Assembly: GCA_964235705.1 (NCBI GenBank) | Contig: CAXSDP010000014.1 | Coordinates: 2,605-66,604 of the forward strand | From: an uncultured Beijerinckiaceae bacterium | GTDB taxonomy: Bacteria; Pseudomonadota; Alphaproteobacteria; Rhizobiales; Beijerinckiaceae | Direction of reading: 5' to 3' | DNA length: 64,000 nt | Shown here: in pieces, positions 6,599-31,502 of the stretch | How positions within the stretch are numbered: position 1 is the stretch's first letter | Layout: every line of letters starts with the position of its first letter | Translations under genes and position numbers: made by a program | Notes under the pieces: model-generated | Database searches by the model: none | What the model was told of the DNA's origin: nothing | What the model saw: the letters and a program-made list of their open reading frames with translations, nothing else

Positions 6599-6614
6599 TC
6601 GAGGGGTGGCCGAC

Positions 6615-10376: not shown

Positions 10377-10388
10377 GCGGAGGCGACC

Positions 10389-10826
10389 ATGGGTGAAGCG
10401 CGACGTCGGAGCATACCCAGCCTGCAGGGGTGGCTGACGAAGAACATTGCCAGCGACGACGCCACAAGCCGGGACGAGTTCGCCTCCTACATGGACTGGG
10501 TCGCGCGGATGCTCGACCATGCGACGCCGCCGGACAAGCTTCAGGCCATGCACCTGCGCATGATCCAGGCTGCTTCCCTGGCGATCGTCGAAACGAGCAA
10601 TGATGAGGTCAGCCGCGGCTCCGATCCGGCCACGATCATGACCATCATGTGCAAGGCCCTTGGCGCGTCGTTCGGCTACGCGATGATGTCCCTCAAGTGG
10701 GAGGACGGCGCACCGGTCCGACAGCTCGCGAAGCCCCTCGCCTTGGAATTCGAGCGCGGGCTGAAGTATGCGATCGATAGTTGCCTCGAGCAGGACACCA
10801 ACGATGCGGCCAGTCACGATGGGTGA
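10389..10826 (+). CDS. Hypothetical phage protein
   Basis: GGAGG RBS; protein-like composition; overlaps the next gene. Confidence 0.7.
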   Translation: MGEARRRSIPSLQGWLTKNIASDDATSRDEFASYMDWVARMLDHATPPDKLQAMHLRMIQAASLAIVETSNDEVSRGSDPATIMTIMCKALGASFGYAMMSLKWEDGAPVRQLAKPLALEFERGLKYAIDSCLEQDTNDAASHDG

Positions 10827-12660
10827 CGTGGTGCGCACGTTGAGCGCGATCACTCCCCACCCCATCCCCAACGCCGCGCTGGACCAGCCACTCTGCATCG
10901 TCGGCACGGTCGGGTCTGGCAAGACCTACGCGGCCAAGAGCGCGGTGGAGCGCCTGCTCGACGAGGGCCGGCGCGTGATCATCGTCGACCCGACCGGGGT
11001 GTGGCACGGCCTGCGCACCATGGCCGACGGTACGCCGGGCTTCCCCGTCGTGATCTTCGGTGGCGAGCAGGCCGACGTCCCCGTGTCGCCCGACGCCGGC
11101 GCGGTGCTGGGTGAGCTGCTGGCCGGCGACCAGGTCACCCAAGCGATTGTCGACGTGTCCGATATGACAGGGGGCGAGCGCACGCGCTTCCTGACGGCCA
11201 TGCTCGAGCGGCTCTACGTCGGCGCACGGGTACCGCGTCACCTTGTGCTCGACGAGGCCGACGAGATGGCGTCGCAGACCCCCCTGCCCGAGCAGCTCCG
11301 GCTGCTGGGCATCGTCGACAAGATCGTGCGGCGCGGCCGGGTGCGCGGCTTCCGGCCGATGATGATCACCCAGCGCCCGGCGGTGCTGCACAAGAACGTG
11401 CTCAGCCAGATCGCCACGCTCGTCGCGATGCGCCTGACCTCGCCCCAGGACCGCAAGGCGGTGGAGGGCTGGGTGCGCGGCTCGGCCGACCTCGAAGAGG
11501 CGAAGGCGGTGCTGGCCTCGCTGCCGAAGCTCGCGGTCGGCGAGGGCTGGGTCTGGGCTCCGCGCGAGGGCGTGCTCGAGCGCACCCGCTTCCCGGCGAT
11601 CGCGACGCTCGACACGTCCGCGACGCCGGACAACGATGCCGGCCCGAGCCGACCGCGCGCGATGGCACCCGTCGACGTCGCCGCGCTACGCGAGGCGCTC
11701 GCCGTTGTGTCTCCTGAGACGCCGGATCAGCTTACACAAGGCTCTTCGCGTATCATCGGTAAGGCACAAGCCGGTGCAACGACGCCCGATGTTCTCAGCC
11801 GACGCGATCGCCAACAGACCACAGCCGAAGCGGCAACGAAGAGGGAAGAGCTCGAGGCCGCCGAGCGGCGCGGGTACGAGCGCGGGGTGCGCGAGGCGGC
11901 GGAACGGATCAACGGCTTCGAGCTGCTGTTCGAGCCGCCCAGCCGGACCGCCGCCACGATCGAGCAGATGGACCGTCAGCCGATCGGCAACCTGTTCACC
12001 GGCCGGATTCTGGCGCTGCTCGATGAGGCGGAGGTCGAGCGCCGGCCTGACCGGCGGACGGCAGCGGGCGGCATGTCAACCCCCTACGGCCCTGCCCCGA
12101 CGAAACAGCCACAGCGAACCCGTCATGGGCCGGCACAGCGCGAGCATCGCGCCGCCGACGAAGATTTTGGCACCGCGAGAGCCGACCTGACGCCAGCACT
12201 GCAACGCGTCCTCGATGCGCTCGGATGGTGGCGCGCCGCCGGCCACCACGAGGTGCCACGCGCCCGCGCCTGTGTCGTTGCCGGTTACAGTCCAAACGCC
12301 TCCACCTTCGGCGTGTACATCGGCGAGCTCGCCAAGCGCGACCTTGTCGCGACCGGTGCCGGCGTCGTCCAATTGACCGAGGCCGGCCTACAGGTCGCGA
12401 GCGTGCCCGAGATCGCTGGCGTCGAGGATCTCCGCCTCGCCGCCCGCATGCTGCTCAAGCCACAGGAAGCCCGCGTGTTCGACGTCATCTACGACGCGCG
12501 GGGCGCGATTAGACGCGACCAAGTCGCCAAGGCGGTCGGGCTGTCACCGACGGCATCGACGGCCGGCGTCTACATCGGTTCCGTTTCGGCCTTCGGGTTG
12601 ATCGAGCCGGCCGGGCGCGGGGCGGTCCGCGCGGCGCCGTGGCTGTATCTCGCGTCATGA
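10819..12660 (+). CDS. HerA/FtsK-like (DUF87-type) P-loop ATPase with C-terminal winged-helix-like region
   Basis: Walker A GTVGSGKT; VIIVDPTG; Walker B LVLDEADE; ITQRPA. Confidence 0.85.
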   Translation: MGDVVRTLSAITPHPIPNAALDQPLCIVGTVGSGKTYAAKSAVERLLDEGRRVIIVDPTGVWHGLRTMADGTPGFPVVIFGGEQADVPVSPDAGAVLGELLAGDQVTQAIVDVSDMTGGERTRFLTAMLERLYVGARVPRHLVLDEADEMASQTPLPEQLRLLGIVDKIVRRGRVRGFRPMMITQRPAVLHKNVLSQIATLVAMRLTSPQDRKAVEGWVRGSADLEEAKAVLASLPKLAVGEGWVWAPREGVLERTRFPAIATLDTSATPDNDAGPSRPRAMAPVDVAALREALAVVSPETPDQLTQGSSRIIGKAQAGATTPDVLSRRDRQQTTAEAATKREELEAAERRGYERGVREAAERINGFELLFEPPSRTAATIEQMDRQPIGNLFTGRILALLDEAEVERRPDRRTAAGGMSTPYGPAPTKQPQRTRHGPAQREHRAADEDFGTARADLTPALQRVLDALGWWRAAGHHEVPRARACVVAGYSPNASTFGVYIGELAKRDLVATGAGVVQLTEAGLQVASVPEIAGVEDLRLAARMLLKPQEARVFDVIYDARGAIRRDQVAKAVGLSPTASTAGVYIGSVSAFGLIEPAGRGAVRAAPWLYLAS

Positions 12661-12876
12661 CACGGACACGCTCGGTGATCGCCGAGGATCCAGGGATGCA
12701 GCTGCGCGGCGGGCTTTGAAACGCGGGCTGGAAGGAGATGCGCCGCAAGGGTTTATGGTGCTTGAGGGCGACAACGTCCGCCTTGCAGGAGTTTTTGGCT
12801 GCGCTGAGCCTCGAGATCTACTCAACTGAAAGGGACGATTAACCCGACCAACTCACCTTCCTAATAAGTCAAGAGT

Positions 12877-12891
12877 GTTCCTATTTTGTTC
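12877..12891. promoter_or_regulatory. Alphaproteobacterial LexA box (GTTC-N7-GTTC) upstream of dprA
   Basis: GTTC-CTATTTT-GTTC in AT-rich intergenic DNA. Confidence 0.7.
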
Positions 12892-13008
12892 TTTTTGTGC
12901 GATACGCTTTGTTGTGGACAGCGTGCGAGTCGACTGCCGAATGAGTTTGCGACTCGGGCTTCCAAGCGTGAACCGTCGCCCGGCAGCCTTGGTTGAATGG
13001 ATGTGCAC

Positions 13009-13740
13009 ATGAGTTTTCATGGTCGACCAGCTAGAGGACGCAAATACCTCGCTCCGGCACAGTCAGTGTCGATGAAGCTCGAAGATGCTTTGACTGCGGG
13101 CTCGCGCACTTTCCACGACGCTAAACAGATGGATTTTCTTCGAGCGTCGAAGATCATCCACGTCGCCGGTGATACCTCACTCTTTAAGCTCCCGGCCGTA
13201 TCAATCGTTGGTACGCGAGAGGTTTCCGCCGAGGGCCGCGTCCGGGCCGTTCGACTTGCGCGCGAATTAGTCGAGGCTGGGGTCGTCGTAATGAGCGGCT
13301 TGGCCAAAGGTGTCGACTCCGCAGCTCACCAATCTGCTATTCAGTCCGGGGGCCGGACTGTTGCCGTCATAGGCACGCCGCTTGAGAAGGCTTATCCTAC
13401 CGAAAACGCCTCCCTACAGGAGTGGATTTATAACGAACACCTCCTAGTTAGCCCATTCGAGAAAGGAGAAGCCACCTTCAAGTCCAGCTTCCCGAAGCGG
13501 AACCGCGTGATGGCCGCCCTTTCGGATGCCACGGTGATCGTCGAGGCATCTGATACGTCAGGCACACTTCACCAAGCCGCCGAATGTGGGCGTTTAGGTA
13601 GGTGGCTGTTCATTATGCGATCTGTGGTAGATGATGCGTCCCTGACATGGCCGGCTCGCTTCTTGGACAGTCCCAAGACCAAAGTCTTAAACTCAACCAA
13701 AGATATCACCGATGCAATTGCCGGTACAAAACCATATTGA
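13009..13740 (+). CDS. DprA/Smf (SLOG) domain protein, ShosA-like
   Basis: VSIVGTR; VVMSGLAKGVDSAAH; FPKRNRVMAALSDATVIVEASDTSGT; Rossmann core only; start could be 12997. Confidence 0.9.
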   Translation: MSFHGRPARGRKYLAPAQSVSMKLEDALTAGSRTFHDAKQMDFLRASKIIHVAGDTSLFKLPAVSIVGTREVSAEGRVRAVRLARELVEAGVVVMSGLAKGVDSAAHQSAIQSGGRTVAVIGTPLEKAYPTENASLQEWIYNEHLLVSPFEKGEATFKSSFPKRNRVMAALSDATVIVEASDTSGTLHQAAECGRLGRWLFIMRSVVDDASLTWPARFLDSPKTKVLNSTKDITDAIAGTKPY

Positions 13741-14377
13741 AGTCGATAGCTTTGTCCGCTACAGTACGGACTCAACATTAGTAAAAAACAGCAGTGATTG
13801 GGACGCCCAGAAGGTAAGATACATAATGAAGGGAGAGAGCTTTAACGGCTACATCTCCATGTTATGCAACGGTTCTTGGCAGAAGATCACTGAAAACAAC
13901 GCTCATCTCTGTGAGCAGGAACTGGTGCGGCAATGCGCTTTACGTATCATATCGAGGACGACCGGACTGGCGACAATTGTACCGGTGCCAAATAGCGGCG
14001 CCACGCCGGCAAACCAAGACTTTAAAACATTGAAGCACGTGCGGGAGATCGCAGGTCTAGCCGGAAAAGGCTTCCTAGCCAAACCGCTGCTTCTTTGGTC
14101 AAGTCCGCAGGAGAAGTCGCATACAGGTGGTCGGTCAAGGTTGTACCGAGACCATCTACAGCATTTGATCCTCAATGGCTCTACAGACAGGCCAATCATA
14201 CTTTATGACGACGTTGTAACAAGTGGCTCGCAGCTGATAGCATCAAAACTGAAGCTTGAGGCAGCTGGGCATAAGATTTTGGGCATGGTCGCGGTGATTT
14301 CAGTTCTCGAGAAAGATGGAGCTACGCACAGCGATCTCTTCTCCTGGCGAACAGACACGCGCCAATACCTTGGATGA
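13712..14377 (+). CDS. Phosphoribosyltransferase-like protein, ShosT-like partner of DprA
   Basis: IVPVPNS; PRPP-binding loop IILYDDVVTSGSQL; overlaps dprA; AT-rich (about 42% GC at 13741-13800, hand count). Confidence 0.8.
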   Translation: MQLPVQNHIEVDSFVRYSTDSTLVKNSSDWDAQKVRYIMKGESFNGYISMLCNGSWQKITENNAHLCEQELVRQCALRIISRTTGLATIVPVPNSGATPANQDFKTLKHVREIAGLAGKGFLAKPLLLWSSPQEKSHTGGRSRLYRDHLQHLILNGSTDRPIILYDDVVTSGSQLIASKLKLEAAGHKILGMVAVISVLEKDGATHSDLFSWRTDTRQYLG

Positions 14378-14493
14378 CGCTGACCACCGCCTTCGCCGCT
14401 TTCGGTTGGTGGCTGGTCAACGGTTTGGTGGCAGCGTGATCGATCCTCTCGCCCCCAAGATCGAGCACGCCATCGACGCTCTACTCCGCCCCA

Positions 14494-14784
14494 TCATTGC
14501 GGCGCATAAGTGCCGAACAATCCGTCTTCCTGAACAATCTCACCTTGCTCGCTCTCGCACCGAAGCACCCTAACGCCTTCCTCGCGCAGCGCCGCGGCGA
14601 ACTCGCGCGCGCCCTCCAGCGTCATGGCCGTCGACACCCCCTGGTAGCCGCGTCCGACCGTGTGGAGACGCCAGATCCTGGCAACCTCGTCACCCTCGCC
14701 CACATCGCACTCGTCAGCTAGGCCGAACAGGCCCTCGACGTCCTCAACCGCCGCTCGGTTATCGAAGTGCCTGTGCTTATCCAT
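14494..14784 (-). CDS. Hypothetical protein divergent from the umu cassette
   Basis: Acidic, protein-like ORF; shares the intergenic LexA box. Confidence 0.55.
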   Translation of the reverse strand: MDKHRHFDNRAAVEDVEGLFGLADECDVGEGDEVARIWRLHTVGRGYQGVSTAMTLEGAREFAAALREEGVRVLRCESEQGEIVQEDGLFGTYAPQ

Positions 14785-14821
14785 GTGGGCATCTTCAGAC
14801 CGGCCTTGCTACCGCGTCAAT

Positions 14822-14836
14822 GTTCCGTTTATGTTC
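14822..14836. promoter_or_regulatory. LexA box upstream of the SOS mutagenesis cassette
   Basis: GTTC-CGTTTAT-GTTC, 21 nt before ATG 14858. Confidence 0.85.
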
Positions 14837-14857
14837 TCCACACCGGAGAGCGAATCC

Positions 14858-15112
14858 ATGGCGACCACGACCTACATCATCCTCCCCTTCATGGTCGCCA
14901 AGCGCGGCGGCAAGCTCGTGCCGGGCACGCCGCAGCGCGCGAAGGACCAAGCGAACGCGGTCTTCGCCGCCGAGCGCATAGCCGAACAGGTCGCTGGCGT
15001 CGTCGTACTGGAGGAGCAGTCCGATCCCGAGCAGGACATCTTCGCCGAGCCCCGCCTCGTGCGCGTCATCGGCCAAGTGCCAGACGAGATGATCGAGTCG
15101 CTCGCGGCCTAA
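14858..15112 (+). CDS. Small hypothetical protein, first gene of the umuDC cassette
   Basis: GGAG RBS; 84 aa MATTTYIILPF... Confidence 0.75.
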   Translation: MATTTYIILPFMVAKRGGKLVPGTPQRAKDQANAVFAAERIAEQVAGVVVLEEQSDPEQDIFAEPRLVRVIGQVPDEMIESLAA

Positions 15113-15151
15113 CCGCCCCATTATCAGCCACGACAGAGAACGGAGAAGCGC

Positions 15152-15586
15152 GTGCAGGTCATCGGCATTACGCTCGGCACACCCATGCCGATCCCCCTGC
15201 TCTTCCGAGCCGTGCGGGCCGGCTTTCCGAGTCCGGCCGACGATTTCATCGAAGACGAAATCGACCTCCAGCGCCTGCTGATCACCAACCGGCCGGCCAC
15301 CTTCCTCGTCCGTGTCGCTGGCGAGAGCATGGCTGACAAGGGGATCCACGACGGCGACCTTGCTATCGTCGATCGCTCGCTGGTGCCGCAGAACGGGGAC
15401 GTCGTCGTGGTCGACATCGACGGGGAGCGCTCGTTCAAGGTGTGGACCCGCAAGGGCAACAGGGTCGACCTCGCCTTCGCTAACCCGCGCTACCCCGCCT
15501 TCGTGTTCGACGCGGGCGCCCACGTCGAGATCTGGGGCGTCGTCGCCAACAGCATCCGCCAGCTCCGCCGGGCCGCACGGCGGTGA
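15152..15586 (+). CDS. umuD: UmuD-like S24 autopeptidase
   Basis: AGFPSPADDF; RVAGESM (catalytic Ser); FKVW (Lys). Confidence 0.93.
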   Translation: MQVIGITLGTPMPIPLLFRAVRAGFPSPADDFIEDEIDLQRLLITNRPATFLVRVAGESMADKGIHDGDLAIVDRSLVPQNGDVVVVDIDGERSFKVWTRKGNRVDLAFANPRYPAFVFDAGAHVEIWGVVANSIRQLRRAARR

Positions 15587-16884
15587 GCGCGCCGGCGCCC
15601 GCCCGCTCCTTGGCGCTCGTCGACGGCAACGCCTTCTATTGCTCCTGCGAGCGGGTGTTCGACCCCCGGCTTAAGGGCGTGCCGGTCATCGTGCTGAGCA
15701 ATAATGATGGCTGTTCCATAGCCCGCACCGCCGAAGCCAAGGCGCTGGGCATCCGCATGGGCGACCCCTGGTTCAAGATCCGCGACCTCTGCCGGCGCGA
15801 GCGCGTGCGGGTGTTCTCGTCGAACTACGCGCTCTACGGTGACATGTCGCGACGGACCAACTCGATCTACGACCGCTTCAGTCGTCGATCCGAGGTCTAC
15901 TCGATCGACGAGTCCTTCCTCGACCTGTCGGACGTGGCGGCCGGCCAGCGCGTCGAGCTCGGCCGCGATCTGCGCTCCACGGTGCTCGCCTGGACCGGCA
16001 TCCCGACCTGCGTCGGCATCGGCCCGACGAAGACGCTGGCCAAGCTCGCCAACCAGCTCGCGAAGAAGAACCCCGAGCTCGCCGGCGTGTGCGACCTGAC
16101 CGAGCCGGCCGCGCGCGACCGATGGCTGGCGCGCACGTCCCTCGACGAGATCTGGGGCGTCGGGCCGGCCTCGCAGGCCAGGCTGCGGGCGATCGGCTGC
16201 GCCACCGTCGCCGACGTGCGCGACCTCGCCCCGCGTCTGGCGCGCCAGGGCATGACGGTCGTGGGCGAGCGCATCGTGCACGAGCTGCGCGGCACGAGTT
16301 GCCTCGACCTCGAGTTGGTCGCGCCGACCCGCAAGGGCTGCGCGGTGACCCGCATGTTCTCCCGCCGCGTGGAAGACCTGCCGACGCTGGAGCAGGCGGT
16401 CGCCGCACACGCGACACGGCTGGGCGAGAAGCTGCGCCGCCACGTGCTCGGCACCGACCACGTTACGGTGTTCTACCACACCAGCGAGCACGACCAGGGC
16501 AGTCCGCAGAGGTCCGTGTCGACGGTGGTGCGCCTGCCGGAGGCGACGTCGGACAGCCTGGTGCTGGTGAAGGCTGCGACCTTCGGCGCCCGGAGGATGT
16601 GGCGCGACGGCTACCGCTACAGCAAGGCGGGGGTGATCACCGTCGACCTGGTGCGGCTCGCCGCGAGCCAGCGCGCGATGCCCAGCCTCGGTCAGTTCGA
16701 CCGCGAGCGCGGGTCCGCGCTGATGGCGGCGATGGACAGCTGCAACGCCCGGTTCGGGCGCGGTGCAGTGGTGCCGGCCGCCGCCGGCGTGGCGCCGCGC
16801 CGGGGCTGGGCGACGAAGTTCGAGATGCGCTCGCCCCGCTACACGACGCGGTTGGCCGAGCTGCCGATGGTGGGGACGTGCTAA
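15583..16884 (+). CDS. umuC: UmuC-like Y-family DNA polymerase (C-terminal DUF4113-like tail)
   Basis: ALVDGNAFYCSCE; VLSNNDGC; SSNYALYGDMS; YSIDESFL; SPRYTTRLAELP. Confidence 0.95.
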   Translation: MSAPAPARSLALVDGNAFYCSCERVFDPRLKGVPVIVLSNNDGCSIARTAEAKALGIRMGDPWFKIRDLCRRERVRVFSSNYALYGDMSRRTNSIYDRFSRRSEVYSIDESFLDLSDVAAGQRVELGRDLRSTVLAWTGIPTCVGIGPTKTLAKLANQLAKKNPELAGVCDLTEPAARDRWLARTSLDEIWGVGPASQARLRAIGCATVADVRDLAPRLARQGMTVVGERIVHELRGTSCLDLELVAPTRKGCAVTRMFSRRVEDLPTLEQAVAAHATRLGEKLRRHVLGTDHVTVFYHTSEHDQGSPQRSVSTVVRLPEATSDSLVLVKAATFGARRMWRDGYRYSKAGVITVDLVRLAASQRAMPSLGQFDRERGSALMAAMDSCNARFGRGAVVPAAAGVAPRRGWATKFEMRSPRYTTRLAELPMVGTC

Positions 16885-16913
16885 CCACGTCGCCGCTGGA
16901 TGAGCGCGACGTG

Positions 16914-17273
16914 TCAGCGGACGAGCAGGCCGGGCACAAGCTCTCCGGGCCTGCCATAGAGACGAAAGACCGTGTCGCACCAGGTCCGCAGGCTGGGCGC
17001 TTTCTCGATTGCCTTCTTGAACGTGACGACGTTTGCCTGCACGGCGCTCGTCAGCGCAGGCTTGTCCTCGTCGACGATGTGGGCCGAGTCCTTCAGGGCC
17101 GCATAAAGGTTCTTATCGACGAGGATGTCATCACATTTGGCCGAAGCGGTCAGTACGACCGCCACCGTCGACGCGTAAGCCGCGATCTCGATGTCATGAG
17201 CCGTGAGAGTGATCGACGGTGATGTGTCGAGCGATGCGGTCACGAGGATAAGAATGAGGGCACTAGAGGACAT
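16914..17273 (-). CDS. Small, probably secreted hypothetical protein (two Cys)
   Basis: Hydrophobic N-terminus (MSSSALILILVTA); start uncertain. Confidence 0.5.
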   Translation of the reverse strand: MSSSALILILVTASLDTSPSITLTAHDIEIAAYASTVAVVLTASAKCDDILVDKNLYAALKDSAHIVDEDKPALTSAVQANVVTFKKAIEKAPSLRTWCDTVFRLYGRPGELVPGLLVR

Positions 17274-17481
17274 CACGTTCACGATGCTCCCACGTAGCCC
17301 GCAGGCTCGAGTCCACGGGCGAAGGTGCGACACGCCTTGCAGCGGCATCGTATCCGCTTCCCCGTCGTTGTTTCTACCGCGGTGATGACTGCAAAGGCGT
17401 GCATGGAGGCACGCTCCCGATCGCGGAAACAACCTGAGCGCGATTTCGGTGGACGCTTCACCCGTTATCGATTGAGATGAG

Positions 17482-18270
17482 GTGCTTCACCGCCATAAGC
17501 CCATGACGCGAGCCACGCCTCCTTACAAAACTTTCGCCGAACGTCGTCGCGAATCGGAATGCTACGCGAGCGCCCTCTCGACGATCGACCGCCTGACCGA
17601 CATCACCGAACTCGACGGATTGGCGGACATGCTGAGTTCCGCCTTCTCCACCTATGGCGTGGACCACTTCATCGTCGCTGGCCTGCCGAACCCGACCGAG
17701 CGCTTCGAGAAGATGGTCATGCTCAAGCATTGGTCGGCGGAGTGGTTCGATGTCTACATGAAGGAGGATTACGTGATCGACGATCCCGTCGTCCGCCTAT
17801 GCCGTTCATCGGTGACGCCTTTCGAATGGACCGAGGCGCCCTTCGATGCCGAGCGCGAGCCGCGCGCCCTGGAGCTGATGAACAGGGCGCGCGACTTCGG
17901 CCTTCGACGTGGTTTCAGCATCCCCGTTCACAGCATGAACGGCCTCGACGCTTGTTTCTCCGTCAGCGGGGCCAAACCCGAGTTCGACAGCGGCGCAAGG
18001 GCGGCGCTGCACCTCGTCGCGGTATATGCCTTCGAGAAGGTTCGCCGGCTGTCGCTTCCCAAGCCACGGCCGAGTCCCCTGACCGCGAGGGAGACGGAGG
18101 TGCTGACCTGGATCGCCTCCGGCAAGAGCCACGGGGACATCGCGGAGATCCTGGGCATCACGGAGCGGACCGTGACGGCGCACGCGGTCAGGGCCACCGA
18201 CAAGCTTGGGGCCTCGAACCGAACCCATGCCTGCGTACGCGCCATGCTCGCGAACTATATCTCCGTCTGA
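17482..18270 (+). CDS. luxR: LuxR-family AHL receptor (autoinducer-binding domain + HTH)
   Basis: W..W...Y......DDPV, PFEW and RGFSIP ligand-pocket residues; LTARETEVLTWIASGKS...ERTV HTH; start 17482 or 17503. Confidence 0.95.
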   Translation: MLHRHKPMTRATPPYKTFAERRRESECYASALSTIDRLTDITELDGLADMLSSAFSTYGVDHFIVAGLPNPTERFEKMVMLKHWSAEWFDVYMKEDYVIDDPVVRLCRSSVTPFEWTEAPFDAEREPRALELMNRARDFGLRRGFSIPVHSMNGLDACFSVSGAKPEFDSGARAALHLVAVYAFEKVRRLSLPKPRPSPLTARETEVLTWIASGKSHGDIAEILGITERTVTAHAVRATDKLGASNRTHACVRAMLANYISV

Positions 18271-18340
18271 CCTTCAGGTTTCTACAATACCGGCCTAGGA
18301 CGTTTCTCCGCATGCTGTTGCTTCCGTGGGGGAAGCAGCC

Positions 18341-18979
18341 ATGTCAGAGATCCACGTCGTCACCCAGGCGAACCGGACGGACTACGATCAAATTTTGGTG
18401 GACTACCACCGTAAACGGCATGACATCTTCGTTGGCGAGCGGAGGTGGATGTCCCTTTTCAGCCCTGATGGCCTGGAAGTCGACGAGTATGACGATGAGC
18501 ACAGTATCTACTTGCTCGCGCTTGAGGGTGATACTGTCGTCGGGGGGCAACGACTCTATCCCACCCTGCGACCGCACATGATCAGCCAGACGTTCGCCCA
18601 CCTCGTCGAGGATCGCGTGCCGGTCAGCTCCCGCATCCTGGAATGGACGCGCTACTTCATCATCAAGGAGCGACGGCGGACGCAGACGGATGGGCGTTTG
18701 ATGGCATCCGTCCAGCAATACTGCCTCGAGGAAGGGATCACCGACCTCACCGCGGTAGGCGAGATGTGGTGGCTGCCGCGTTGGCAGCAGTATGGCTTCG
18801 ACGTGCGACCGCTCGGCCTGCCGCAGATGGTCGATGGCCAGCCTGCGCTCGCCGTCCGCATCGAGATCTCGGAGGAGAGCTACGAAAGCGTGCTGAGCGT
18901 CGCCGGGTTGAAGCACCAGGATCTCACTCGGTGCCGTTCGGGCGCGAGCAATGGCGGGCGTCTGGCCAATGCCGCATGA
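18341..18979 (+). CDS. luxI: Acyl-homoserine lactone synthase, BjaI/RpaI-like
   Basis: RHDIFVGERRW, DGLEVDEYDD, GGQRLYPT, LEWTRYF, EMWWLPR, PLGLP. Confidence 0.95.
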   Translation: MSEIHVVTQANRTDYDQILVDYHRKRHDIFVGERRWMSLFSPDGLEVDEYDDEHSIYLLALEGDTVVGGQRLYPTLRPHMISQTFAHLVEDRVPVSSRILEWTRYFIIKERRRTQTDGRLMASVQQYCLEEGITDLTAVGEMWWLPRWQQYGFDVRPLGLPQMVDGQPALAVRIEISEESYESVLSVAGLKHQDLTRCRSGASNGGRLANAA

Positions 18980-19184
18980 GTTACCACGATCGCGGATCGT
19001 GGAAAGTTTGGCGGCGTCCGTCGCCTCGTTCGCCGAGTGCCAATCCGCCGAAGGCTTGGCCAGCCTGATCGGCTTCTTCCACCTGGCCGTTCCTCACCGA
19101 GAGGCCAGGATCGAACTCATTGTCAGTCCTTCGGGGCGCCTGGAGCTCAGCATCGACCTTCATCCGGTGGAAGAGGGCGGTTAG
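18969..19184 (+). CDS. Small (71 aa) hypothetical protein overlapping the luxI stop
   Basis: 11-nt overlap with luxI; protein-like; an alternative 30-aa ORF starts at 18976. Confidence 0.55.
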   Translation: MPHELPRSRIVESLAASVASFAECQSAEGLASLIGFFHLAVPHREARIELIVSPSGRLELSIDLHPVEEGG

Positions 19185-19255
19185 GAGTCGCACGCTGGCG
19201 GTTTGGTCGCGGGACGCATACTGTTGCTGAAGCGAGGCTTCAGTGGGCAAGTGCA

Positions 19256-19663
19256 TTGGATTCTTTCGACGAGCTTGTTGGCACCAAGATCCGTTTCAGA
19301 CGCAACGAGTTGGGGCAGTCTCAAGAACAGCTCGCGAAAGCAAGCGGCGTCACGTTCCAGCAGGTGCAGAAGTACGAGAAAGGCAAAAATCGCGTCGCAG
19401 CCAGCCGCTTGGTGCGTATCGCCGAAGCGCTTCAGGTCCAACCGACCTACTTCTTCCCTCTGGATCCCAAGTTCGGTGCGGCGCCCTGTGGCGAACTTGA
19501 ACTTATGCGAGAAAGCTTCGGAAGCGAGGACAGACGGAAGCTTAACCGCGCCTTTGGCCAGATCGAAGCTCCCGCGTTAAGGAAGGCGATCGTCCGCTTG
19601 GTGGAAGCGCTCGCCGAGGGAAGGACAGGTTACGCCGTGGAGGAAGAAGGCGAGGGCGGCTGA
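19256..19663 (+). CDS. XRE/Cro-CI family HTH regulator
   Basis: VGTKIRFRRNELGQSQEQLAKASGVTFQQVQKYEKGKNRVAASRL; TTG start uncertain. Confidence 0.9.
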   Translation: MDSFDELVGTKIRFRRNELGQSQEQLAKASGVTFQQVQKYEKGKNRVAASRLVRIAEALQVQPTYFFPLDPKFGAAPCGELELMRESFGSEDRRKLNRAFGQIEAPALRKAIVRLVEALAEGRTGYAVEEEGEGG

Positions 19664-19981
19664 CGCGCCATCGACGGCAAACGCGCAGTCCGGCCCTCGC
19701 CGGGACATCGCGGCGCTCGGCAGCGAGGGCGACGCGGGCTGGCGATGAAGGACGCCGGCTGCGATCGCCAGCCCGAACGGTTCGGAGCAGGCCACAACGT
19801 TGGCACGATGACCGTCGTGATCGGGCCGGATCAGCCAGAGCCGATTGCGGAGCGTAATCCGCACGCCAGAAATACGCCAGAAGCGGTAGGGTTTCGGCGT
19901 TTTCGCGGCGGGACAGGAATTCTTACGTGCGGATTACAAGTCCGCGTACATTGAAAACTGCTCAGACTAGAGGCGGCAGGT

Positions 19982-20809
19982 TCAGGAGCCCGTACCTTGA
20001 ATGACACCCCCTCCATACTTGTTTACAACAAGAAAAAGGCTATTATAGAGCCGCGGCGGAAGATCGGACATCAGATTAATTTTAAAGTCACCTTTTTTAT
20101 TGCGCTCAGTAATGACAGCGATCTTTAGGTCATTGATCTCGTCAATTAAATTCTCCTCTGCCTTTTCGCTATGAGGTACAAAGAACGATACATAGTTCGC
20201 AAATCTTTCGACATCTAAGCGGTCTCTACGTATCGGAGCTGCGAGAGATTGCATGATATTTTTCATTTCCTTCAGCTCGGAAAGCACAAAGTCTTGACTT
20301 GAAACTTCTTGCTCATCGAGCTTGGCAATTTTGAATGTTCCAAACTGTTTGAGAAAGGGCGAGTAATCCGCCTCTTTTGCCGCCTTCATAGTGGCAAGTA
20401 TCTTGGAGCGGAGCGTTTCTTTAAACTTGATAATATCCGCAAAACGCAGATCTTTGGGATAGGCAATGTGTTCTACTAATCCTGTATCAAAGCTATATGG
20501 CGTCACTTCATCCTTGATTATAACTACAGGCTTGTCGAATGCCATTCTCATTCCCAACTCGAACATGACATTGGGATTACGCGAGCTGACGTCGCATACA
20601 ATCATTGGGCAATTACTTATATTCTGCACGATCGTTTTGTGAATAGTCTTAATTTCATCAGCTATGCTAACGACTGTAGCATCCATATTTGCCATCTTGA
20701 TGGCATCCTGTACTATCTCCCTCACGTCAAGCCAATGAGAAGCAGAGTATCCTTCAACAGGACTGATTGGCATTATTATACCGCAGATCTGATTGTCTCT
20801 TTCGGTCAA
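19982..20809 (-). CDS. AT-rich protein with NDT/TIR-like N-terminal domain
   Basis: CGIIMPIS...VCDVSSRNPNVMFELGMRMAFDKPVVIIKD; about 37% GC at 20041-20100 (hand count); TTG start after GGGGG. Confidence 0.75.
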   Translation of the reverse strand: MTERDNQICGIIMPISPVEGYSASHWLDVREIVQDAIKMANMDATVVSIADEIKTIHKTIVQNISNCPMIVCDVSSRNPNVMFELGMRMAFDKPVVIIKDEVTPYSFDTGLVEHIAYPKDLRFADIIKFKETLRSKILATMKAAKEADYSPFLKQFGTFKIAKLDEQEVSSQDFVLSELKEMKNIMQSLAAPIRRDRLDVERFANYVSFFVPHSEKAEENLIDEINDLKIAVITERNKKGDFKINLMSDLPPRLYNSLFLVVNKYGGGVIQGTGS

Positions 20810-20849
20810 GGTGTGACCCCCCGTTTGGTGACCATAAATCTTTGTACTT

Positions 20850-21284
20850 CTATGCTGCTTCAACACCGATGATTAATCGCCTACCGAGAGCGGCCAGCAC
20901 GGCCATCAGCGTCGACATCTTGGTCGGATGATCGGGATCGAGGATGCGCCGCACCTCGCGCCCGTCCTTGCCGAGCCGCTCGCCGAGTTCGGCCTGGGTG
21001 ATGCCGGACTCGCGGAACGCCTCCAGCACCGCCAGCTTCGCCGCGACGTCGGCGTCGACGGAAACCATGACCTGCCCCGCCTTGGCCTTCGACGCTTTCG
21101 GCAGCGGCCGCTTCATCTCGAAGAGGGTGAGCAGCGCCACACCGAGCGCGTCGCTGCCCATCGCCCGCGCGTCAGCCTCGCCGTTGCCCTCGGTGATCGC
21201 CTCCGGCACGTCGGGGAAGGTGACCACGAGGACGCCGGGGTTTTCGCCCGGCTCGAAGATCGCTGGGTACGTGAACATGCGCAT
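20850..21284 (-). CDS. hicB: HicB antitoxin
   Basis: YPAIFEP...VVTFPDVPEAITEG...A; C-terminal HTH (SGITQAELGERLG...RRILDP). Confidence 0.93.
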   Translation of the reverse strand: MRMFTYPAIFEPGENPGVLVVTFPDVPEAITEGNGEADARAMGSDALGVALLTLFEMKRPLPKASKAKAGQVMVSVDADVAAKLAVLEAFRESGITQAELGERLGKDGREVRRILDPDHPTKMSTLMAVLAALGRRLIIGVEAA

Positions 21285-21319
21285 GGATCCCTCCTTGAAC
21301 GAAATGGACCGGCTCGGCC

Positions 21320-21517
21320 TCAGGTGAGGCCGAACTTCTTCCTGATCTTGCCGGCGGTGACCGGGTCGATCTCCCGGCTCGGTAGGATCGTCACCTTGTC
21401 GCCCACGCGGACGATGCAGTGGCCGCCCTTGCCGCGCCCCTTGTCGACCGAGAAGGAAAGGCCCCGGGCCTTGGCGGCGTCGCGAAGCTCGTTGATGAAG
21501 CGATCCCGCTTGTCCAT
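21320..21517 (-). CDS. hicA: HicA toxin (dsRBD-like RNase)
   Basis: 65 aa, basic, GKGGH motif, directly upstream of hicB. Confidence 0.88.
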   Translation of the reverse strand: MDKRDRFINELRDAAKARGLSFSVDKGRGKGGHCIVRVGDKVTILPSREIDPVTAGKIRKKFGLT

Positions 21518-21547
21518 GGCCTTGGTCTCTCCGTCCGATGAAGAGAT

Positions 21548-21602
21548 AATAGGACATAAATGCCCTCATGGCAAGCACTGATTAGGCGTTTTTTGTCCTA
21601 TT
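21548..21602. promoter_or_regulatory. Inverted repeat AATAGGACA...TGTCCTATT, probable HicB operator
   Basis: Perfect 9-bp arms (21548-21556, 21594-21602) between the divergent hicA and 21669 ORFs. Confidence 0.6.
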
Positions 21603-21668
21603 TTCTCCTTGCGTAAAGCGTCCCGCAGAGCGATGTTGGTCCGACGCAGAGAACGAGGGGCGGCGACG

Positions 21669-21896
21669 ATGAAGCAGGTCAGCAAGACCCATGAGAAGAT
21701 GATGGCGGTGCTCGAGACCATCGCTCGGAAGCACCTCTCCCTGGAGACGTTGGCCACGCGCAACGGCGACGGCCTCGACTTCTCCGACCAGGCGGTTTGG
21801 TCGCTTGAGGCCGCGCTGCGTGCCGCCTACGACGCGGGTATGGCGGCTCGGAGCGGGCGGGCCCAGCAGGTGACGGGCTCGCTGGCGGTGAACTGA
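21669..21896 (+). CDS. DUF6900-like small protein
   Basis: IARKHLSLETLATRNGDGLDFSDQAVWSLEAALRAAYDAG. Confidence 0.75.
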   Translation: MKQVSKTHEKMMAVLETIARKHLSLETLATRNGDGLDFSDQAVWSLEAALRAAYDAGMAARSGRAQQVTGSLAVN

Positions 21897-21923
21897 CGAG
21901 GGCGCCCACGGGCCTCAGACGCG

Positions 21924-21957
21924 AAAAAAGCCCCGCCTCGCCGGAGCGAGACGGGGC
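21924..21957 (-). terminator. Rho-independent terminator ending the late/lysis operon
   Basis: GCCCCG-CTCGC hairpin with CGGA loop followed by TTTTTT on the minus strand. Confidence 0.8.
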
Positions 21958-22052
21958 GAAGTCATGGGAGGAAACGCCCTACGTGGGCGTGGACTGATGA
22001 TGCAGGATCCGTGCTTGCGCGAACCTGTCTATGTAGCCGCAGCCTGTTGAGG

Positions 22053-22559
22053 CTAGCGCAGCTCCACCATCGGATGCGCTCCAGAGCCGAGGTGGGCGTT
22101 CCAAACCACGAAGGTGACGAAGAAGCCGGCGGCGACGATGAAGCCGGTCGACACCCAGCGCGCGCGGGGCACCCTACCCTCGACGGCGTTCGGCGCCCAA
22201 AGGTGCAGGAGCACGCCGACGAGGCCGATGTACATGATCGCGGTCTCCCAGTCGGAGTTGAAGATGTCCGGCCAGCCGCCGTTTCGCCCGACGAAGGAGA
22301 CGAGGCGCTGCGCCAGCATCGACAGGGCCACCAGGAAGATGCCGGAGCCGAGGTAGTCGCCCTTGGTCGGCACGCGGGCCGACAAGGCCACGACGAGCAC
22401 GGGCGAGTAGGCGACGCACACGCCTGCCGTCGCCGAGGCGACCAAGCCATTCAACATCAGGATGAGGAAGGGCGAGTCGGTCAGGGCCGCGACGAGGAGG
22501 TACCCGACGGCGCACGATGCGAGGAAACGGAGCAACCGGCCGTGTCGAAGGTCAGCCAT
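22053..22559 (-). CDS. Multi-pass membrane protein, last gene of the lysis region
   Basis: About 5 hydrophobic segments; overlaps the upstream ORF. Confidence 0.75.
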   Translation of the reverse strand: MADLRHGRLLRFLASCAVGYLLVAALTDSPFLILMLNGLVASATAGVCVAYSPVLVVALSARVPTKGDYLGSGIFLVALSMLAQRLVSFVGRNGGWPDIFNSDWETAIMYIGLVGVLLHLWAPNAVEGRVPRARWVSTGFIVAAGFFVTFVVWNAHLGSGAHPMVELR

Positions 22560-22776
22560 CCGCGTCATCGTGTTTTCCCATGCGTTTGAAGAGGTCGTTC
22601 ATCGTGTCCCGCAGGGCGCGCTCGTGGGACGCGTTGGCGGCGACCGTCACCCGCTGGTGCTCGGCGACGGCGGCGTCGACGTCGCGGGCGATGAGGTCGA
22701 TGGTCGTGGCGGGTTCGCCCGCCGGCGGGTCCGGCTTGAAGAGCCTGCGAAGGATCGGTCCCAGGAACCGCATCAT
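22552..22776 (-). CDS. Small hypothetical protein
   Basis: MMRFLGPILRRLF...; overlaps genes on both sides. Confidence 0.65.
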   Translation of the reverse strand: MMRFLGPILRRLFKPDPPAGEPATTIDLIARDVDAAVAEHQRVTVAANASHERALRDTMNDLFKRMGKHDDADG

Positions 22777-23135
22777 CGGCTCCTCGTCCGACGCGGGCCG
22801 AACGCCTCCTTCATCCAGTCCTTCACCGCCGCGAGCTCGTCGGCCAAGGCCGCCAGCATCTTCGTCAGGTCCTTGTCGCCCTGCCCGCGCGCGGCGATCG
22901 TCTCCGTCGCGGTCACCGTCACCTTCACCAGCGCGGTGGCGTCCTGGAGCCGCTTCTCCTGCAGGATCGCGATCTCCGCCCGAAGCGCCGCGTTCTCCGC
23001 CTCCTTGCCGGTCAACCGCTTGGCCAGCAGCCAGCAGATCGCACCAAGCAGCATGAGAACGAGCGCATAGGCGCCCCAGCTCTTCAGCGCTTCGCCCCAG
23101 ATCGCGGGGACGAGCGTCGTCGCTGCGCTGTCCAT
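22773..23135 (-). CDS. Single-TM coiled-coil protein (holin-like)
   Basis: WGAYALVLMLLGAICWLL TM segment followed by a heptad region. Confidence 0.7.
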   Translation of the reverse strand: MDSAATTLVPAIWGEALKSWGAYALVLMLLGAICWLLAKRLTGKEAENAALRAEIAILQEKRLQDATALVKVTVTATETIAARGQGDKDLTKMLAALADELAAVKDWMKEAFGPRRTRSR

Positions 23136-23161
23136 CGCTCATCTCCATTCGCCTCGCTGGG

Positions 23162-23473
23162 CTAGTCCCGCGCGCCAGGGGCGCCGTAGTGCTGGACGAC
23201 GTCGGCGTAGAAGGCGGCGTCCGCGCCGAGGCGGGCGTTGGCGTCGAGCCGGCCGGCCTTCTCCCGCGCGGCGTAGGCGCGGGCGTCCTCGCCGGCCTGG
23301 GCGGGCGGTACGACCACCGGTACGCCGAACGACGCCGGCGCCGGCGGCAGCACCGGCCTAGCGGCGAGCACCGGCGGCGCCGAGGCCGCGCAGCCGGCGA
23401 GCGTCGTCGCCAGACAGACGGCAGCCATCAGGATGAGAGGCGCGCGTGGGCTTCGAGGCGAGTTCGGACGCAT
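23162..23473 (-). CDS. Outer-membrane spanin (Rz1-like lipoprotein)
   Basis: Lipobox LAGC, Pro-rich mature part, overlaps the i-spanin 3' end. Confidence 0.75.
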   Translation of the reverse strand: MRPNSPRSPRAPLILMAAVCLATTLAGCAASAPPVLAARPVLPPAPASFGVPVVVPPAQAGEDARAYAAREKAGRLDANARLGADAAFYADVVQHYGAPGARD

Positions 23474-23861
23474 AGGCTTGGACCTGTCGCTGGAGGGTGT
23501 CGGCGGTCGCGGCGGCGGTGCGCTCGCGCTGAGCGGCGGCATCGGCGATGTCGTGTTGCGCCCGGGCCTGCCTGGCATTCTCATCGGCCCACGCCGTCGC
23601 GACGGCGAGATCGGCGCCCAGGCGGTGCGAGCGATCCGAAGCGGCGTCGAGCGCGGCCCGCGCTTCCCAGCCCACCACGACGGCCATCAGGCAGGCCATG
23701 GCGATCCGTCCGCTCGACGAGCGCGCGAGGCCGCGCAGGCGACCGGACACCCCGGGGATGAAGCAGGCGCCCACAAGGAGTATCGGCAGGCCGAGCACGG
23801 CGTGGGCGAGGGCGAAGCGCCCAAGGTCCGCCGCGAGGGCGTCGAGGATCAGGCGGCGCAT
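23358..23861 (-). CDS. Inner-membrane spanin (Rz-like)
   Basis: N-terminal TM segments, Ala-rich coiled coil, C-terminal GCRLSGDDARRL. Confidence 0.75.
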   Translation of the reverse strand: MRRLILDALAADLGRFALAHAVLGLPILLVGACFIPGVSGRLRGLARSSSGRIAMACLMAVVVGWEARAALDAASDRSHRLGADLAVATAWADENARQARAQHDIADAAAQRERTAAATADTLQRQVQAYASELASKPTRASHPDGCRLSGDDARRLRGLGAAGARR

Positions 23862-23970
23862 GGAAGGCTCCGGTGGGAGGATGGGGGACGACGCGCCGAC
23901 CCGTCGCGCGAGCGCGGGGCGTTCAACCCGTCTCGGGCGAGGCCGAGGCCGGCGCGTCGAACTCGGGAAG

Positions 23971-24381
23971 TCAGGCCCCCGGCGCTGGCGTCGGCACCGG
24001 CTCGGGGGTGATCGCGGCGGCGTCGGCGAGGCCCTGGCTGTGGAGGGCGGCGAGGAGCATCGGACCGAGGAAGCCGGCGACGAGGATCACGATGCCGACG
24101 ACGCGGGCCTGCGTGTCGGGGAGGTAGCGGCCCCAATCCGTGCCGGCGATCTGCGCGTAGAGCGGACCCACAATCGGCACGAGGGACGTCGCGAAGGCCA
24201 GGATGACGACCTTGAGACCGTGAAGGCGCAGCATGATGCGCGCGATCAGGCTCGCCTCGGCGGCGCCGATCCGCTCGTAGAGCCCGGCCGTCAGCCGGAA
24301 GCTGTGATGGTTCGGTCGGATCAGCAGGAACCAGACGACGAGCTGGGCGGCGAGCGCCAGCGGAAGGAGCACGAGGAGCAT
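23971..24381 (-). CDS. Holin-like membrane protein
   Basis: Three hydrophobic segments, directly after the endolysin. Confidence 0.6.
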   Translation of the reverse strand: MLLVLLPLALAAQLVVWFLLIRPNHHSFRLTAGLYERIGAAEASLIARIMLRLHGLKVVILAFATSLVPIVGPLYAQIAGTDWGRYLPDTQARVVGIVILVAGFLGPMLLAALHSQGLADAAAITPEPVPTPAPGA

Positions 24382-24391
24382 GGTGGTGGCC

Positions 24392-25276
24392 CTAGTTGGA
24401 GGACGCGATCGCGGCGGTGCCGGATGGGATCGACACGCCGCCGGGCACCCCGCTGATCGCGGCGAAGGCGGCGCCGCGCTTGGCGAAGACGCTCGCGCGC
24501 AGGAGGAGCGCGATGGTGGCGGCGATCGCCGCGATCGCGACGCCGAGCACGAGCCAGCTGAGTGCCGTGTCGGCGGCGAGCGAGGCGGCCAGGATGCCGC
24601 CGCCGGCGAGCGTCACGCCGACCGCCTCGTTCGTGTTGGTGGAAGCCTGGGCGGCGCGTGCCGCCAGGTGGGCGTTAGCGTCGCCGGGATGGATCCCCAC
24701 CTGGTGCGCGTAGGCCTCCGCGAGGCGGGTGTCATACCCCTTGGTCGCCGGTCCGTTGTAGAGGCGGGCGAAGCTCGGCCAGTCCTTCGCGACGAGGGCG
24801 GCGCGCATGTGCGGGCTGGCGACGATGAAGTGCGCCATGGCGGCGAGGTGCTCGTCCTCGCCGCCGGCGACGAAGGCAGTCACCATCGCGGTCGCGCTCG
24901 GATAGCCTGCGGCGGCGTGGTTCTCGCCGAGGATCTGCGGCAGACCCCACGAGGTGGAGCGAAGCGCCGCCTCCTCGTCGATCGCCATGGCGGCGGCGAT
25001 GCGCCCGTAGGAGTCGTGCGGGTACGGCTTGGCGCCCCAGCGCGGGTAGGCGAGGCCGGACGCCACGGCGCGGTCGCGCTTGTCGCCCTGGAGGTTGCGG
25101 TGGAAGATGTGCGGCTCGAACAGCGCCTTGGGACGGTGTTCGTCGTCGAAGCCGGAGCAGGACGCCTCGACCTGGATGTCGGCGAGCAGCGCGTCGACCG
25201 CGCAGCCGATCAGGGCGGCCGCCGCGGCGACCCCGCCGTCCGTGCGCTTGGTCGCGGTGCCGGTGAAGTTCAGCAT
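24392..25276 (-). CDS. Endolysin, N-acetylmuramidase (DUF3380-type) with C-terminal hydrophobic tail
   Basis: QVEAS...LFEPHIF; STSWGLPQILGEN; FARLYNGP...YDTRLAEAY. Confidence 0.9.
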   Translation of the reverse strand: MLNFTGTATKRTDGGVAAAAALIGCAVDALLADIQVEASCSGFDDEHRPKALFEPHIFHRNLQGDKRDRAVASGLAYPRWGAKPYPHDSYGRIAAAMAIDEEAALRSTSWGLPQILGENHAAAGYPSATAMVTAFVAGGEDEHLAAMAHFIVASPHMRAALVAKDWPSFARLYNGPATKGYDTRLAEAYAHQVGIHPGDANAHLAARAAQASTNTNEAVGVTLAGGGILAASLAADTALSWLVLGVAIAAIAATIALLLRASVFAKRGAAFAAISGVPGGVSIPSGTAAIASSN

Positions 25277-25283
25277 GGTGGCC

Positions 25284-25661
25284 TCAGTTCAGGCGGGTGA
25301 AGTTGACGATCGCGGTGCCGGCGCGCTCGAAGCCGAGGACGCGCGCGGCGCCGCGTGAGAGGTCGAGGACGCGGCCGGACCATGCCGCCGGGCCGCGATC
25401 GTTGACGACCACGACCACGGAGCGCCGGCCGAGGCGGACGCGCAGGCGGCAGCCAAGCGGCAGCGAGCGGTGGGCGGCCGACAGTCCCATCGGCCGCCAC
25501 ACCGCGCCGGAGGCCGTGCGGCCGTGCCCCATCTCCGCCCCGTAGAAGCTGGCGCGGCCGCTTTCGGCACGGGCCGGCGCGGCGCTCGCCATGCCGAGGC
25601 ACAGGCCAAGAAAAAGGCCCGCTTGCGCGAGCCTGGGAAGCGTCGTCACGACCGTCGTCAC
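25284..25661 (-). CDS. rlpA: RlpA-like double-psi beta-barrel lytic transglycosylase with signal peptide
   Basis: GRASFYG...TASG; AAHRSLPLG; VVNDRGP; RVLDLSRGAA. Confidence 0.9.
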   Translation of the reverse strand: MTTVVTTLPRLAQAGLFLGLCLGMASAAPARAESGRASFYGAEMGHGRTASGAVWRPMGLSAAHRSLPLGCRLRVRLGRRSVVVVVNDRGPAAWSGRVLDLSRGAARVLGFERAGTAIVNFTRLN

Positions 25662-25663
25662 GA

Positions 25664-25939
25664 TCAGCTCGAAGGGGCCGTCGACGTCGTCGACGTGGAG
25701 GGCGAAGCCGCCGCGGGTGCGGGTGCCAGGGTCAGGGTGACGGCGGCGCCGGTCTTGTAGGCGGCGATCTGATCGGCGGTCGGGTTGGTGATCACCACGG
25801 GGAAGGTCTTGGCCATCTTCACGTTGCCGGGCAGCGTCGTCGACACGTCGACGTGCACCGTCAGGGTCGGCGCCTCGGGGTTGTCGTCGGCGACGGCGTT
25901 CTTGACCGTGTGGGAAAGGGCGACGGGTGCGGCGGACAT
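25664..25939 (-). CDS. Hypothetical phage protein
   Basis: GGAGG RBS; in line with the operon. Confidence 0.65.
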   Translation of the reverse strand: MSAAPVALSHTVKNAVADDNPEAPTLTVHVDVSTTLPGNVKMAKTFPVVITNPTADQIAAYKTGAAVTLTLAPAPAAASPSTSTTSTAPSS

Positions 25940-25967
25940 GGCGGCCTCCAAGCTGATGGGGTTCGGG

Positions 25968-26597: not shown

Positions 26598-26606
26598 GGC
26601 AAGCCC

Positions 26607-31501: not shown

Positions 31502-31502
31502 G

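Follow-up and report, generated by a model that had tools for sequence, protein, structure and literature searches.

The 64,000-nucleotide stretch of DNA analyzed here, called the window, comes from an uncultured Beijerinckiaceae bacterium (contig CAXSDP010000014.1 of GenBank assembly GCA_964235705.1). It carries a luxI-type gene, with a luxR-type gene directly upstream, inside an inserted island that also holds the structural genes of a myovirus-like prophage. Three questions are considered here: which acyl donor the synthase uses, which signal it makes, and whether the signal serves the phage. The original prediction, made from the DNA sequence, was that the enzyme is of the coenzyme A (CoA)-using BjaI/RpaI type and that the phage may own a private or unusual signal. 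Our results indicate that positions 18341-18979 in all likelihood encode an intact LuxI-family acyl-homoserine lactone (AHL) synthase of the acyl-CoA-dependent clade, the nearest characterised member of which is BjaI.

The synthase gene

The luxI open reading frame (ORF) extends from ATG 18341 to TGA 18977-18979 on the + strand and encodes 212 amino acids (P0001), the same limits as in the original prediction. A longer version starting at GTG 18326 (217-aa ORF) is possible, but ATG 18341 is preferred because homologues start at the MSEIHVV position. Pfam Autoind_synth (PF00765) matches residues 24-188 of the 217-aa ORF at profile positions 10-182/183, with 70.4 bits against a cut-off of 24. 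The NCBIfam matches of the product are of TraI type and all lie below threshold, at 60 bits where the cut-offs are 250-292. Residues R26, W36, D48, D51 and R71 are invariant across sets of 22 and of 60 diverse homologues, and R104 is invariant or nearly so in the same sets. All of them are present in the synthase, which therefore looks intact.

We also considered that luxI might be an inactive remnant, or the maker of an N-acyl product other than a homoserine lactone (HSL), with no working quorum-sensing circuit at this locus. Being the cargo of a mobile element in an uncultured organism would suit such a view, as would a weak secondary Pfam match to the FeeM N-acyl amino acid synthase, which at E 6.6e-4 does not reach the cut-off of that family. 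However, the frame is full-length, every family-invariant residue is in place, and the structure model described below is a confident one. In addition, the gene directly upstream encodes a cognate LuxR whose autoinducer-binding domain is intact, and the cassette formed by these genes is kept in four other metagenomic contigs at 63-80% identity. A remnant or a non-HSL enzyme is thus very improbable.

Substrate class of the synthase

Among solved structures (PDB), phmmer placed BjaI first (E 2.8e-55, 190 bits), followed by RpaI (123 bits) and MesI (112 bits). Enzymes that use acyl groups on acyl carrier protein (ACP) scored far lower in the same search, with 50 bits for TofI, 47 for LasI and 26 for EsaI. 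An AlphaFold2 model of the synthase, built from a 60-sequence alignment, reached a mean predicted local distance difference test (pLDDT) value of 94.5. With this predicted model as the query, the top three Foldseek matches in PDB were, in order, BjaI (template modelling score, TM, 0.88), RpaI (0.90) and MesI (0.86), and TofI (0.74), LasI (0.76) and EsaI (0.65) were found lower down. The depositors of the BjaI, RpaI and MesI entries title them 'CoA-dependent acyl-homoserine lactone synthase'. BjaI (PDB 5W8A/C/E/G), the isovaleryl-CoA-dependent isovaleryl-HSL synthase of B. japonicum/diazoefficiens, is the best solved relative by both sequence and Foldseek E-value. In structural alignment the identity to RpaI (PDB 6WN0) is 31%, and that to MesI of Mesorhizobium (PDB 6WNS) is 33%.

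Motifs were compared pairwise with the Bradyrhizobium japonicum BjaI orthologue L041 (462 bits to PDB 5W8A). RHDIFVGERRW of the synthase pairs with RHDIFVEERRW, GGQRLYPT with GGHRLYPT, EWTRYF with EWSRYF, and EMWWLPR with ETWWLPR. The four motifs on which the original prediction was built are thus all present and paired in the alignment, at a level of similarity (phmmer E-value and Pfam score above) far beyond chance. Its wording that they closely follow BjaI holds for the motifs and less so for the protein, which is only 45% identical to BjaI over the whole length (95/213). Residues W143 and W144 of the synthase align with the Trp pairs of BjaI and RpaI. As summarised in PMC8188788, which cites Dong et al. 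2017 and 2020, these pairs (BjaI W142/W143, RpaI W146/W147) form an 'indole platform' that underlies the preference for acyl-CoA. One cluster representative of the synthase's own clade (P0121, 51% identical) carries Ala-Ala at the platform site (EVAAAPR), a natural variant among members that otherwise have Trp-Trp there. In LasI/EsaI-type enzymes the helix and loop that dock ACP carry conserved basic residues, which are missing from the BjaI clade (PMC4234381). Within residues 140-172 there are 2 Lys+Arg in the synthase and 1 in the BjaI orthologue, against 6 in TraI, 5 in a Burkholderia glumae plasmid LuxI and 4 in a Leisingera LuxI, an outgroup of three sequences in which TraI is the one with a documented substrate.

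The phylogeny that the original prediction had suggested as a check was computed from 150 representatives of 50%-identity clusters, named genome loci and plasmid-borne references including TraI of pTiC58. Three runs were made: FastTree (156 rows), a quick IQ-TREE and a careful IQ-TREE under LG+C20. Reference rows were verified through PDB (L041 is BjaI, P0261 is RpaI-like and the pMLb gene L084 is MesI). The 80 genome loci scanned took in neither R. palustris RpaI nor BraI, and RpaI-like rows were identified through PDB instead. All three trees agree on the position of the synthase. Under LG+C20 it forms a 5-row group with four metagenomic sequences (support 100/97), nested in a 14-row clade of Microvirga, Methylobacterium/Methylorubrum, Lichenihabitans and Beijerinckiaceae sequences (98/98). 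This clade and the BjaI clade (100/99) together make up a 24-row clade (99/98). The RpaI-like and MesI rows lie further out, in a surrounding 42-row clade with weaker support (83/85), and TraI of pTiC58 and two other distant LuxIs fall far outside. The synthase thus groups with the CoA users and not with the acyl-ACP synthases. The acyl-CoA-dependent clade that holds the synthase corresponds to cluster 1 of Dong et al., in the summary given by bioRxiv 10.64898/2026.05.13.724834. The closest named relatives of the synthase are LuxIs of Microvirga and Methylobacterium/Methylorubrum, such as that of the M. extorquens AM1 megaplasmid pair, with 55-60% identity, the same E[MT]WWLPR motif and the same luxR-luxI order.

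Several points weigh against this assignment. CoA dependence does not require the Trp-Trp pair, nor is the pair proven to suffice for it: MesI, CoA-dependent by its title, has Phe-Trp where our sequence has Trp-Trp, and several rows within the 24-row clade do not have the pair. Trp-Trp is typical of the CoA clade, not universal in it. The docking comparison has the small outgroup described above, and BjaI itself prefers CoA over ACP substrates by only about 48-fold (PMC4234381). No biochemically characterised product was identified for the synthase or for any member of its 14-row clade, and for its 56%-identical homologue from the M. extorquens AM1 megaplasmid no link to MsaI or to another named, characterised synthase was established. 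Even so, membership of the synthase in the BjaI/CoA clade is hardly in doubt, and a preference for acyl-CoA over acyl-ACP is likely. The acyl-CoA type named in the original prediction is borne out by sequence, fold, phylogeny, the Trp-Trp pair and the few basic docking residues. An acyl-ACP enzyme of the TraI/LasI-like type was rejected on sequence, fold and tree. The synthase is an additional member of an already known CoA-dependent LuxI clade, to which LuxIs of this part of the Hyphomicrobiales usually belong. As a rule of thumb, placement in the BjaI clade, a Trp-Trp pair and a non-basic docking stretch together mark a CoA-type LuxI from its sequence.

The acyl-homoserine lactone signal

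A CoA-type call does not predict the signal. Four CoA-dependent clusters are distinguished: 1a with BjaI, 1b with RpaI and BraI, 1c with MesI, which works best with hexanoyl-CoA, and 2 with MplI, which uses long chains (bioRxiv 10.64898/2026.05.13.724834). According to the same source, BjaI expressed in yeast yields mainly C4-HSL, and a LuxR-based sensor responds to the products of BjaI, BraI, RpaI and MesI. Dependence on CoA is therefore no sign of an odd signal, and MesI shows that CoA-type enzymes can make ordinary ones. MesI and its pMLb homologue belong to the same larger clade as our synthase and have the same fold. Most methylotroph LuxIs, too, are predicted CoA users, and bioRxiv 10.1101/2021.04.26.441494 states that the signals of these enzymes 'cannot be predicted' from sequence. 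The Methylobacterium signals known so far extend from C6/C8 to unsaturated C12-C14 (bioRxiv 10.1101/2021.04.26.441494, among other sources). For our synthase, likewise, the acyl group of the signal cannot be read from the sequence.

The synthase resembles BjaI in the Trp-Trp platform, in the luxR-luxI order, in a receptor 47% identical to the LuxR encoded upstream of Bradyrhizobium bjaI and in the neighbouring position of the two clades. Nevertheless, it lies outside the tight BjaI (isovaleryl-HSL) clade, in a separate, well-supported sister clade of Methylobacteriaceae/Beijerinckiaceae type, and the residues flanking the platform differ. Beside the platform it has VGEMWW where the BjaI clade consensus is IMETWW, strand 4 reads YFIIKERR in place of YFVVRDRR, and it also departs from the consensus after the PLGLP turn.

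RpaI (p-coumaroyl-HSL) and BraI (cinnamoyl-HSL), which depend on aryl-CoA, share the larger clade, the Trp-Trp platform and a very similar fold with our synthase. In RpaI, Gln124 hydrogen-bonds the p-coumarate hydroxyl (PMC8188788). The synthase has Met at this site, as BjaI does, so that an RpaI-like aryl specificity is not indicated. The RpaI-like rows also branch outside the BjaI-plus-query clade, and no aryl-CoA ligase was linked to the synthase of the window. The test for kinship with the aryl-HSL synthases was thus negative, and RpaI-type aryl specificity was rejected on the Met residue and the tree position.

It is a real possibility that the synthase, although a member of the BjaI clade by ancestry, makes an ordinary straight-chain C4-C8 AHL, from acyl-CoA or acyl-ACP, that standard biosensors would see. 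The hexanoyl-CoA preference of MesI in the same larger clade, the C4-HSL made by BjaI in yeast and the sensor response to four CoA-type enzymes are consistent with this, and so are the C6-C8 and C12-C14 signals of the Methylobacterium relatives. The 48-fold discrimination by BjaI leaves some room for ACP substrates, and an enzyme with 45% identity to BjaI and so many changes near the platform (VGEMWW for IMETWW, IIKERR for VVRDRR) may differ from it in product. However, the sequence gives no argument for a straight chain either, the product not being predictable, and the few basic residues in the docking stretch speak against acyl-ACP as the main donor. The unusual signal of the original prediction, one that fatty-acyl biosensors would miss, is not established, given the ordinary products of MesI and BjaI, the 45% identity, the differences around the platform and Met at the Gln124 site. 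A 'private' signal would also have nothing to be private from: there is one LuxI and one LuxR in the 97%-complete assembly.

By analogy with BjaI, the synthase would bind S-adenosylmethionine (SAM) and an acyl-CoA drawn from host metabolism, and the W143/W144 platform may take over the role of the basic surface that docks ACP. Transfer of the acyl group to the SAM amine would follow, and lactonisation would free the acyl-HSL and methylthioadenosine. The adjacent LuxR-type protein would sense this product.

Organization of the cassette

The luxI gene is the second of four genes in the order luxR-luxI-small ORF-xre (Table 1). The luxR ORF opens at a GTG, but ATG 17503 (255 aa) fits the 253-254 aa of its homologues better. 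Its product is 64-75% identical to the receptors of the sister cassettes in other metagenomic contigs. The small ORF has no Pfam match. It is kept at the same position in the sister cassettes L090, L091 and L092, with 43-57% identity, and a 70-aa gene is called there in L119. Over the five cassettes its length is 68-82 aa, and it overlaps the luxI stop. The last gene encodes an XRE/Cro-CI-type helix-turn-helix (HTH) regulator and is kept behind luxI in all four sister cassettes. Its start is tentative: the TTG listed is a guess, and the open frame extends back to 19037.

Table 1. Window coordinates of the features discussed, with the sister cassettes in the coordinates of their own loci
Feature	Position	Strand	Remarks
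Inserted island with myovirus-like prophage	6600..60750	.	PHROGs matches and synteny break
luxR-type receptor/regulator	17482..18270	+	Pfam Autoind_bind 1e-32, GerE 1.5e-16
luxI-type acyl-homoserine lactone synthase, BjaI (acyl-CoA) clade	18341..18979	+	212 aa; Trp-Trp platform W143/W144; PF00765
Small ORF, 71 aa	18969..19184	+	ATG overlaps luxI stop codon
XRE/Cro-CI-type HTH regulator, last cassette gene	19256..19663	+	Pfam HTH_3 1.6e-14
Sister cassettes	L090 9169-11271; L091 4758-6899; L092 9166-11299; L119 813-2918		window counterpart 17482-19663

In this same four-gene arrangement we also found each of the top four synthase homologues, which are 80, 75, 66 and 63% identical. The surroundings differ: L090 and L092 are chromosomal, L091 is plasmid- or element-like (RepB, ParB, serine recombinase) and L119 is a short contig. 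With the prophage island of the window, the arrangement recurs in five unrelated contexts. The four genes thus form one transferable cassette, and it is not tied to phages, because the same arrangement is found in chromosomal and in plasmid-like settings. The GC content of luxR (63.5%), luxI (61.5%) and xre (59.8%) is lower than the genome-wide value of 69.1%, which marks the cassette as cargo of the island.

Outside the cassette an XRE partner was found in other positions. In the Microvirga loci L002-L019, L023, L065 and L077 it is encoded upstream of luxR in divergent orientation, at about 4650-5080 in each and with 40-46% identity to the XRE protein of the window, and the small ORF was not detected by tblastn. 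In Bosea an XRE homologue occurs on either side. XRE therefore seems to be a general companion of this LuxR/LuxI lineage, variable in position. The Bradyrhizobium loci, in contrast to the window, show neither the small ORF nor XRE beside the luxR-luxI pair.

A perfect 12-bp inverted repeat was detected at 19735-19775 (CGGGCTGGCGAT, 17 nt, ATCGCCAGCCCG), about 70 nt past the XRE stop and without a T tract. It could be the end of the cassette transcript or a protein binding site. Divergent from luxR is a 172-aa ORF (16914-17432, - strand) that has neither a Pfam family nor an equivalent next to the sister cassettes.

The prophage-bearing island

The host assembly (G000) comprises 186 contigs. 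Beijerinckia sp. L45 and Beijerinckiaceae bacterium RH AL1 carry named relatives of a host protein that flanks the island, and the host is accordingly taken to be a Beijerinckiaceae-type member of the Hyphomicrobiales. The first 6400 positions of the window hold host genes conserved across the genus, coding for a glycosyltransferase, a bacteriophytochrome kinase, a major facilitator superfamily (MFS) transporter and MarR. The window is syntenic with the nearest relative, G007, up to about position 6622, and synteny resumes on another contig of the same assembly at C4:15625, so that the stretch from about 6.6 kb to the contig end is an insertion relative to G007. The break coincides exactly with the beginning of the DUF5131 gene (6600-6622), which places the left island junction there; contig C4 should hold the right junction.

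The left part of the island contains the phage-typical DUF5131 gene (phrog_2045, 7.5e-117), a PLD-like gene and an FtsK/HerA-like ATPase. The cargo arm follows, with a DprA-domain gene and the next ORF, umuDC, the quorum-sensing cassette, an AT-rich NDT-like gene, a hicB-like gene and DUF6900, in this order. After it comes a minus-strand structural module of tape measure, tail sheath, head/protease, portal and terminase genes. PHROGs matches were obtained for the large terminase (5.6e-167), head/protease (2e-158), tail sheath (4e-145) and portal (6.7e-92), and also for the small terminase and the tape measure. A methyltransferase gene and a serine recombinase gene (59890-60750, serine integrase 1e-83) are found in the right part. 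Past the recombinase the sequence is accessory, and the host flank expected from synteny is at C4:15625, so 60750 is not a fixed right boundary. Direct repeats that could serve as attachment sites were sought within each junction region separately, and nothing usable was found. Serine recombinases need no direct-repeat attachment sites.

The cassette is thus found about 11 kb into the insertion, together with genes for phage structure and a serine recombinase; the right end of this insertion is not fixed. The cargo arm at 6.6-22 kb could be an element separate from the structural module. The original prediction called the synthase the phage's own; this stands insofar as the cassette is inside an inserted prophage-bearing island, and falls short insofar as the same cassette occurs outside phages. 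A search with the large terminase in 60 genomes of the family returned only proteins about 34% identical.

The G000 genome has exactly one match to PF00765 and one to PF03472, both in the cassette. The best LuxI match obtained from 20 further species of the genus was 43% identical; G007 gave none. On this reading, the cassette would have been captured as lower-GC cargo in the prophage-bearing island, and would give the lysogen its only AHL circuit.

Quorum sensing and phage decisions

Does the phage communicate through this circuit? Control of phage decisions has been shown for Phaeobacter prophages, and the xre-luxR-luxI modules of Phaeobacter/Roseobacter described by Bunsick et al. (bioRxiv 10.64898/2026.07.02.736140) likewise combine a complete LuxI/LuxR pair with an XRE partner. 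They are exchangeable modules within a prophage region, to which the prophage-bearing island of the window may correspond. Applied to the window, an unusual (branched or aryl) signal made from acyl-CoA would report the density of lysogens, and LuxR, the small ORF and XRE would set the choice between lysis and lysogeny. The position of the cassette some 11 kb into an insertion with a complete-looking myovirus structural module is compatible with this, as are its XRE regulator, its being the sole LuxI/LuxR of the genome, and the lower GC that marks it as cargo.

We nevertheless regard such phage communication as unlikely. The same cassette, XRE included, is found in L090 and L092 on chromosomes and in L091 in a plasmid-like setting, with no phage genes within 10 kb. 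XRE thus belongs to the cassette, and is unlikely to be a phage immunity repressor, because it travels with the cassette outside phages. The gene order is also unlike that of the described phage modules: xre comes first in the modules of Bunsick et al. and last in the window, so that the test of operon order was negative. No LuxR-box-like palindrome or promoter was found around luxR, luxI and xre, and hence no such link to the phage genes. No relative of the synthase was found in IMG/VR by a pattern-limited method, and the sole LuxI-like match in GenBank phages (MT835580.1, 21876-22445, from human faecal samples, in an unannotated record) is 26% identical. The cassette is, moreover, placed amid other cargo, namely umuDC, the DprA pair, hicB and the NDT-like gene.

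The hosts differ as well. The modules of Bunsick et al. are from Roseobacter, while the window has a Beijerinckiaceae-type Hyphomicrobiales host and a synthase of the BjaI clade, and the link to lysis and lysogeny is known only for the former. Their screen required genomes with at least 2 luxI genes and found phage modules only in Roseobacter (bioRxiv 10.64898/2026.07.02.736140), whose prophages are so far the sole reported carriers of phage LuxI/LuxR circuits. It could not see genomes such as G000, because G000 has one luxI. Control over phage decisions by the cassette of the window is possible. That a temperate phage of a Beijerinckiaceae-type soil/lichen bacterium carries the only AHL system of its host, and gauges the number of lysogens and directs induction by a non-fatty-acyl signal, appears quite improbable to us; if true, LuxI/LuxR communication by phages would not be confined to Roseobacter, and would include signals from central acyl-CoA metabolism.

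Implications

As an enzyme, the synthase belongs to a type already known in these bacteria; the less ordinary aspect is its setting, a CoA-type circuit in a prophage island outside Roseobacter. Such a circuit in the prophage-bearing island of a different bacterial order would widen where phage quorum sensing is sought. For the host, the locus suggests that lysogeny can hand a signal-blind bacterium a full quorum-sensing system.

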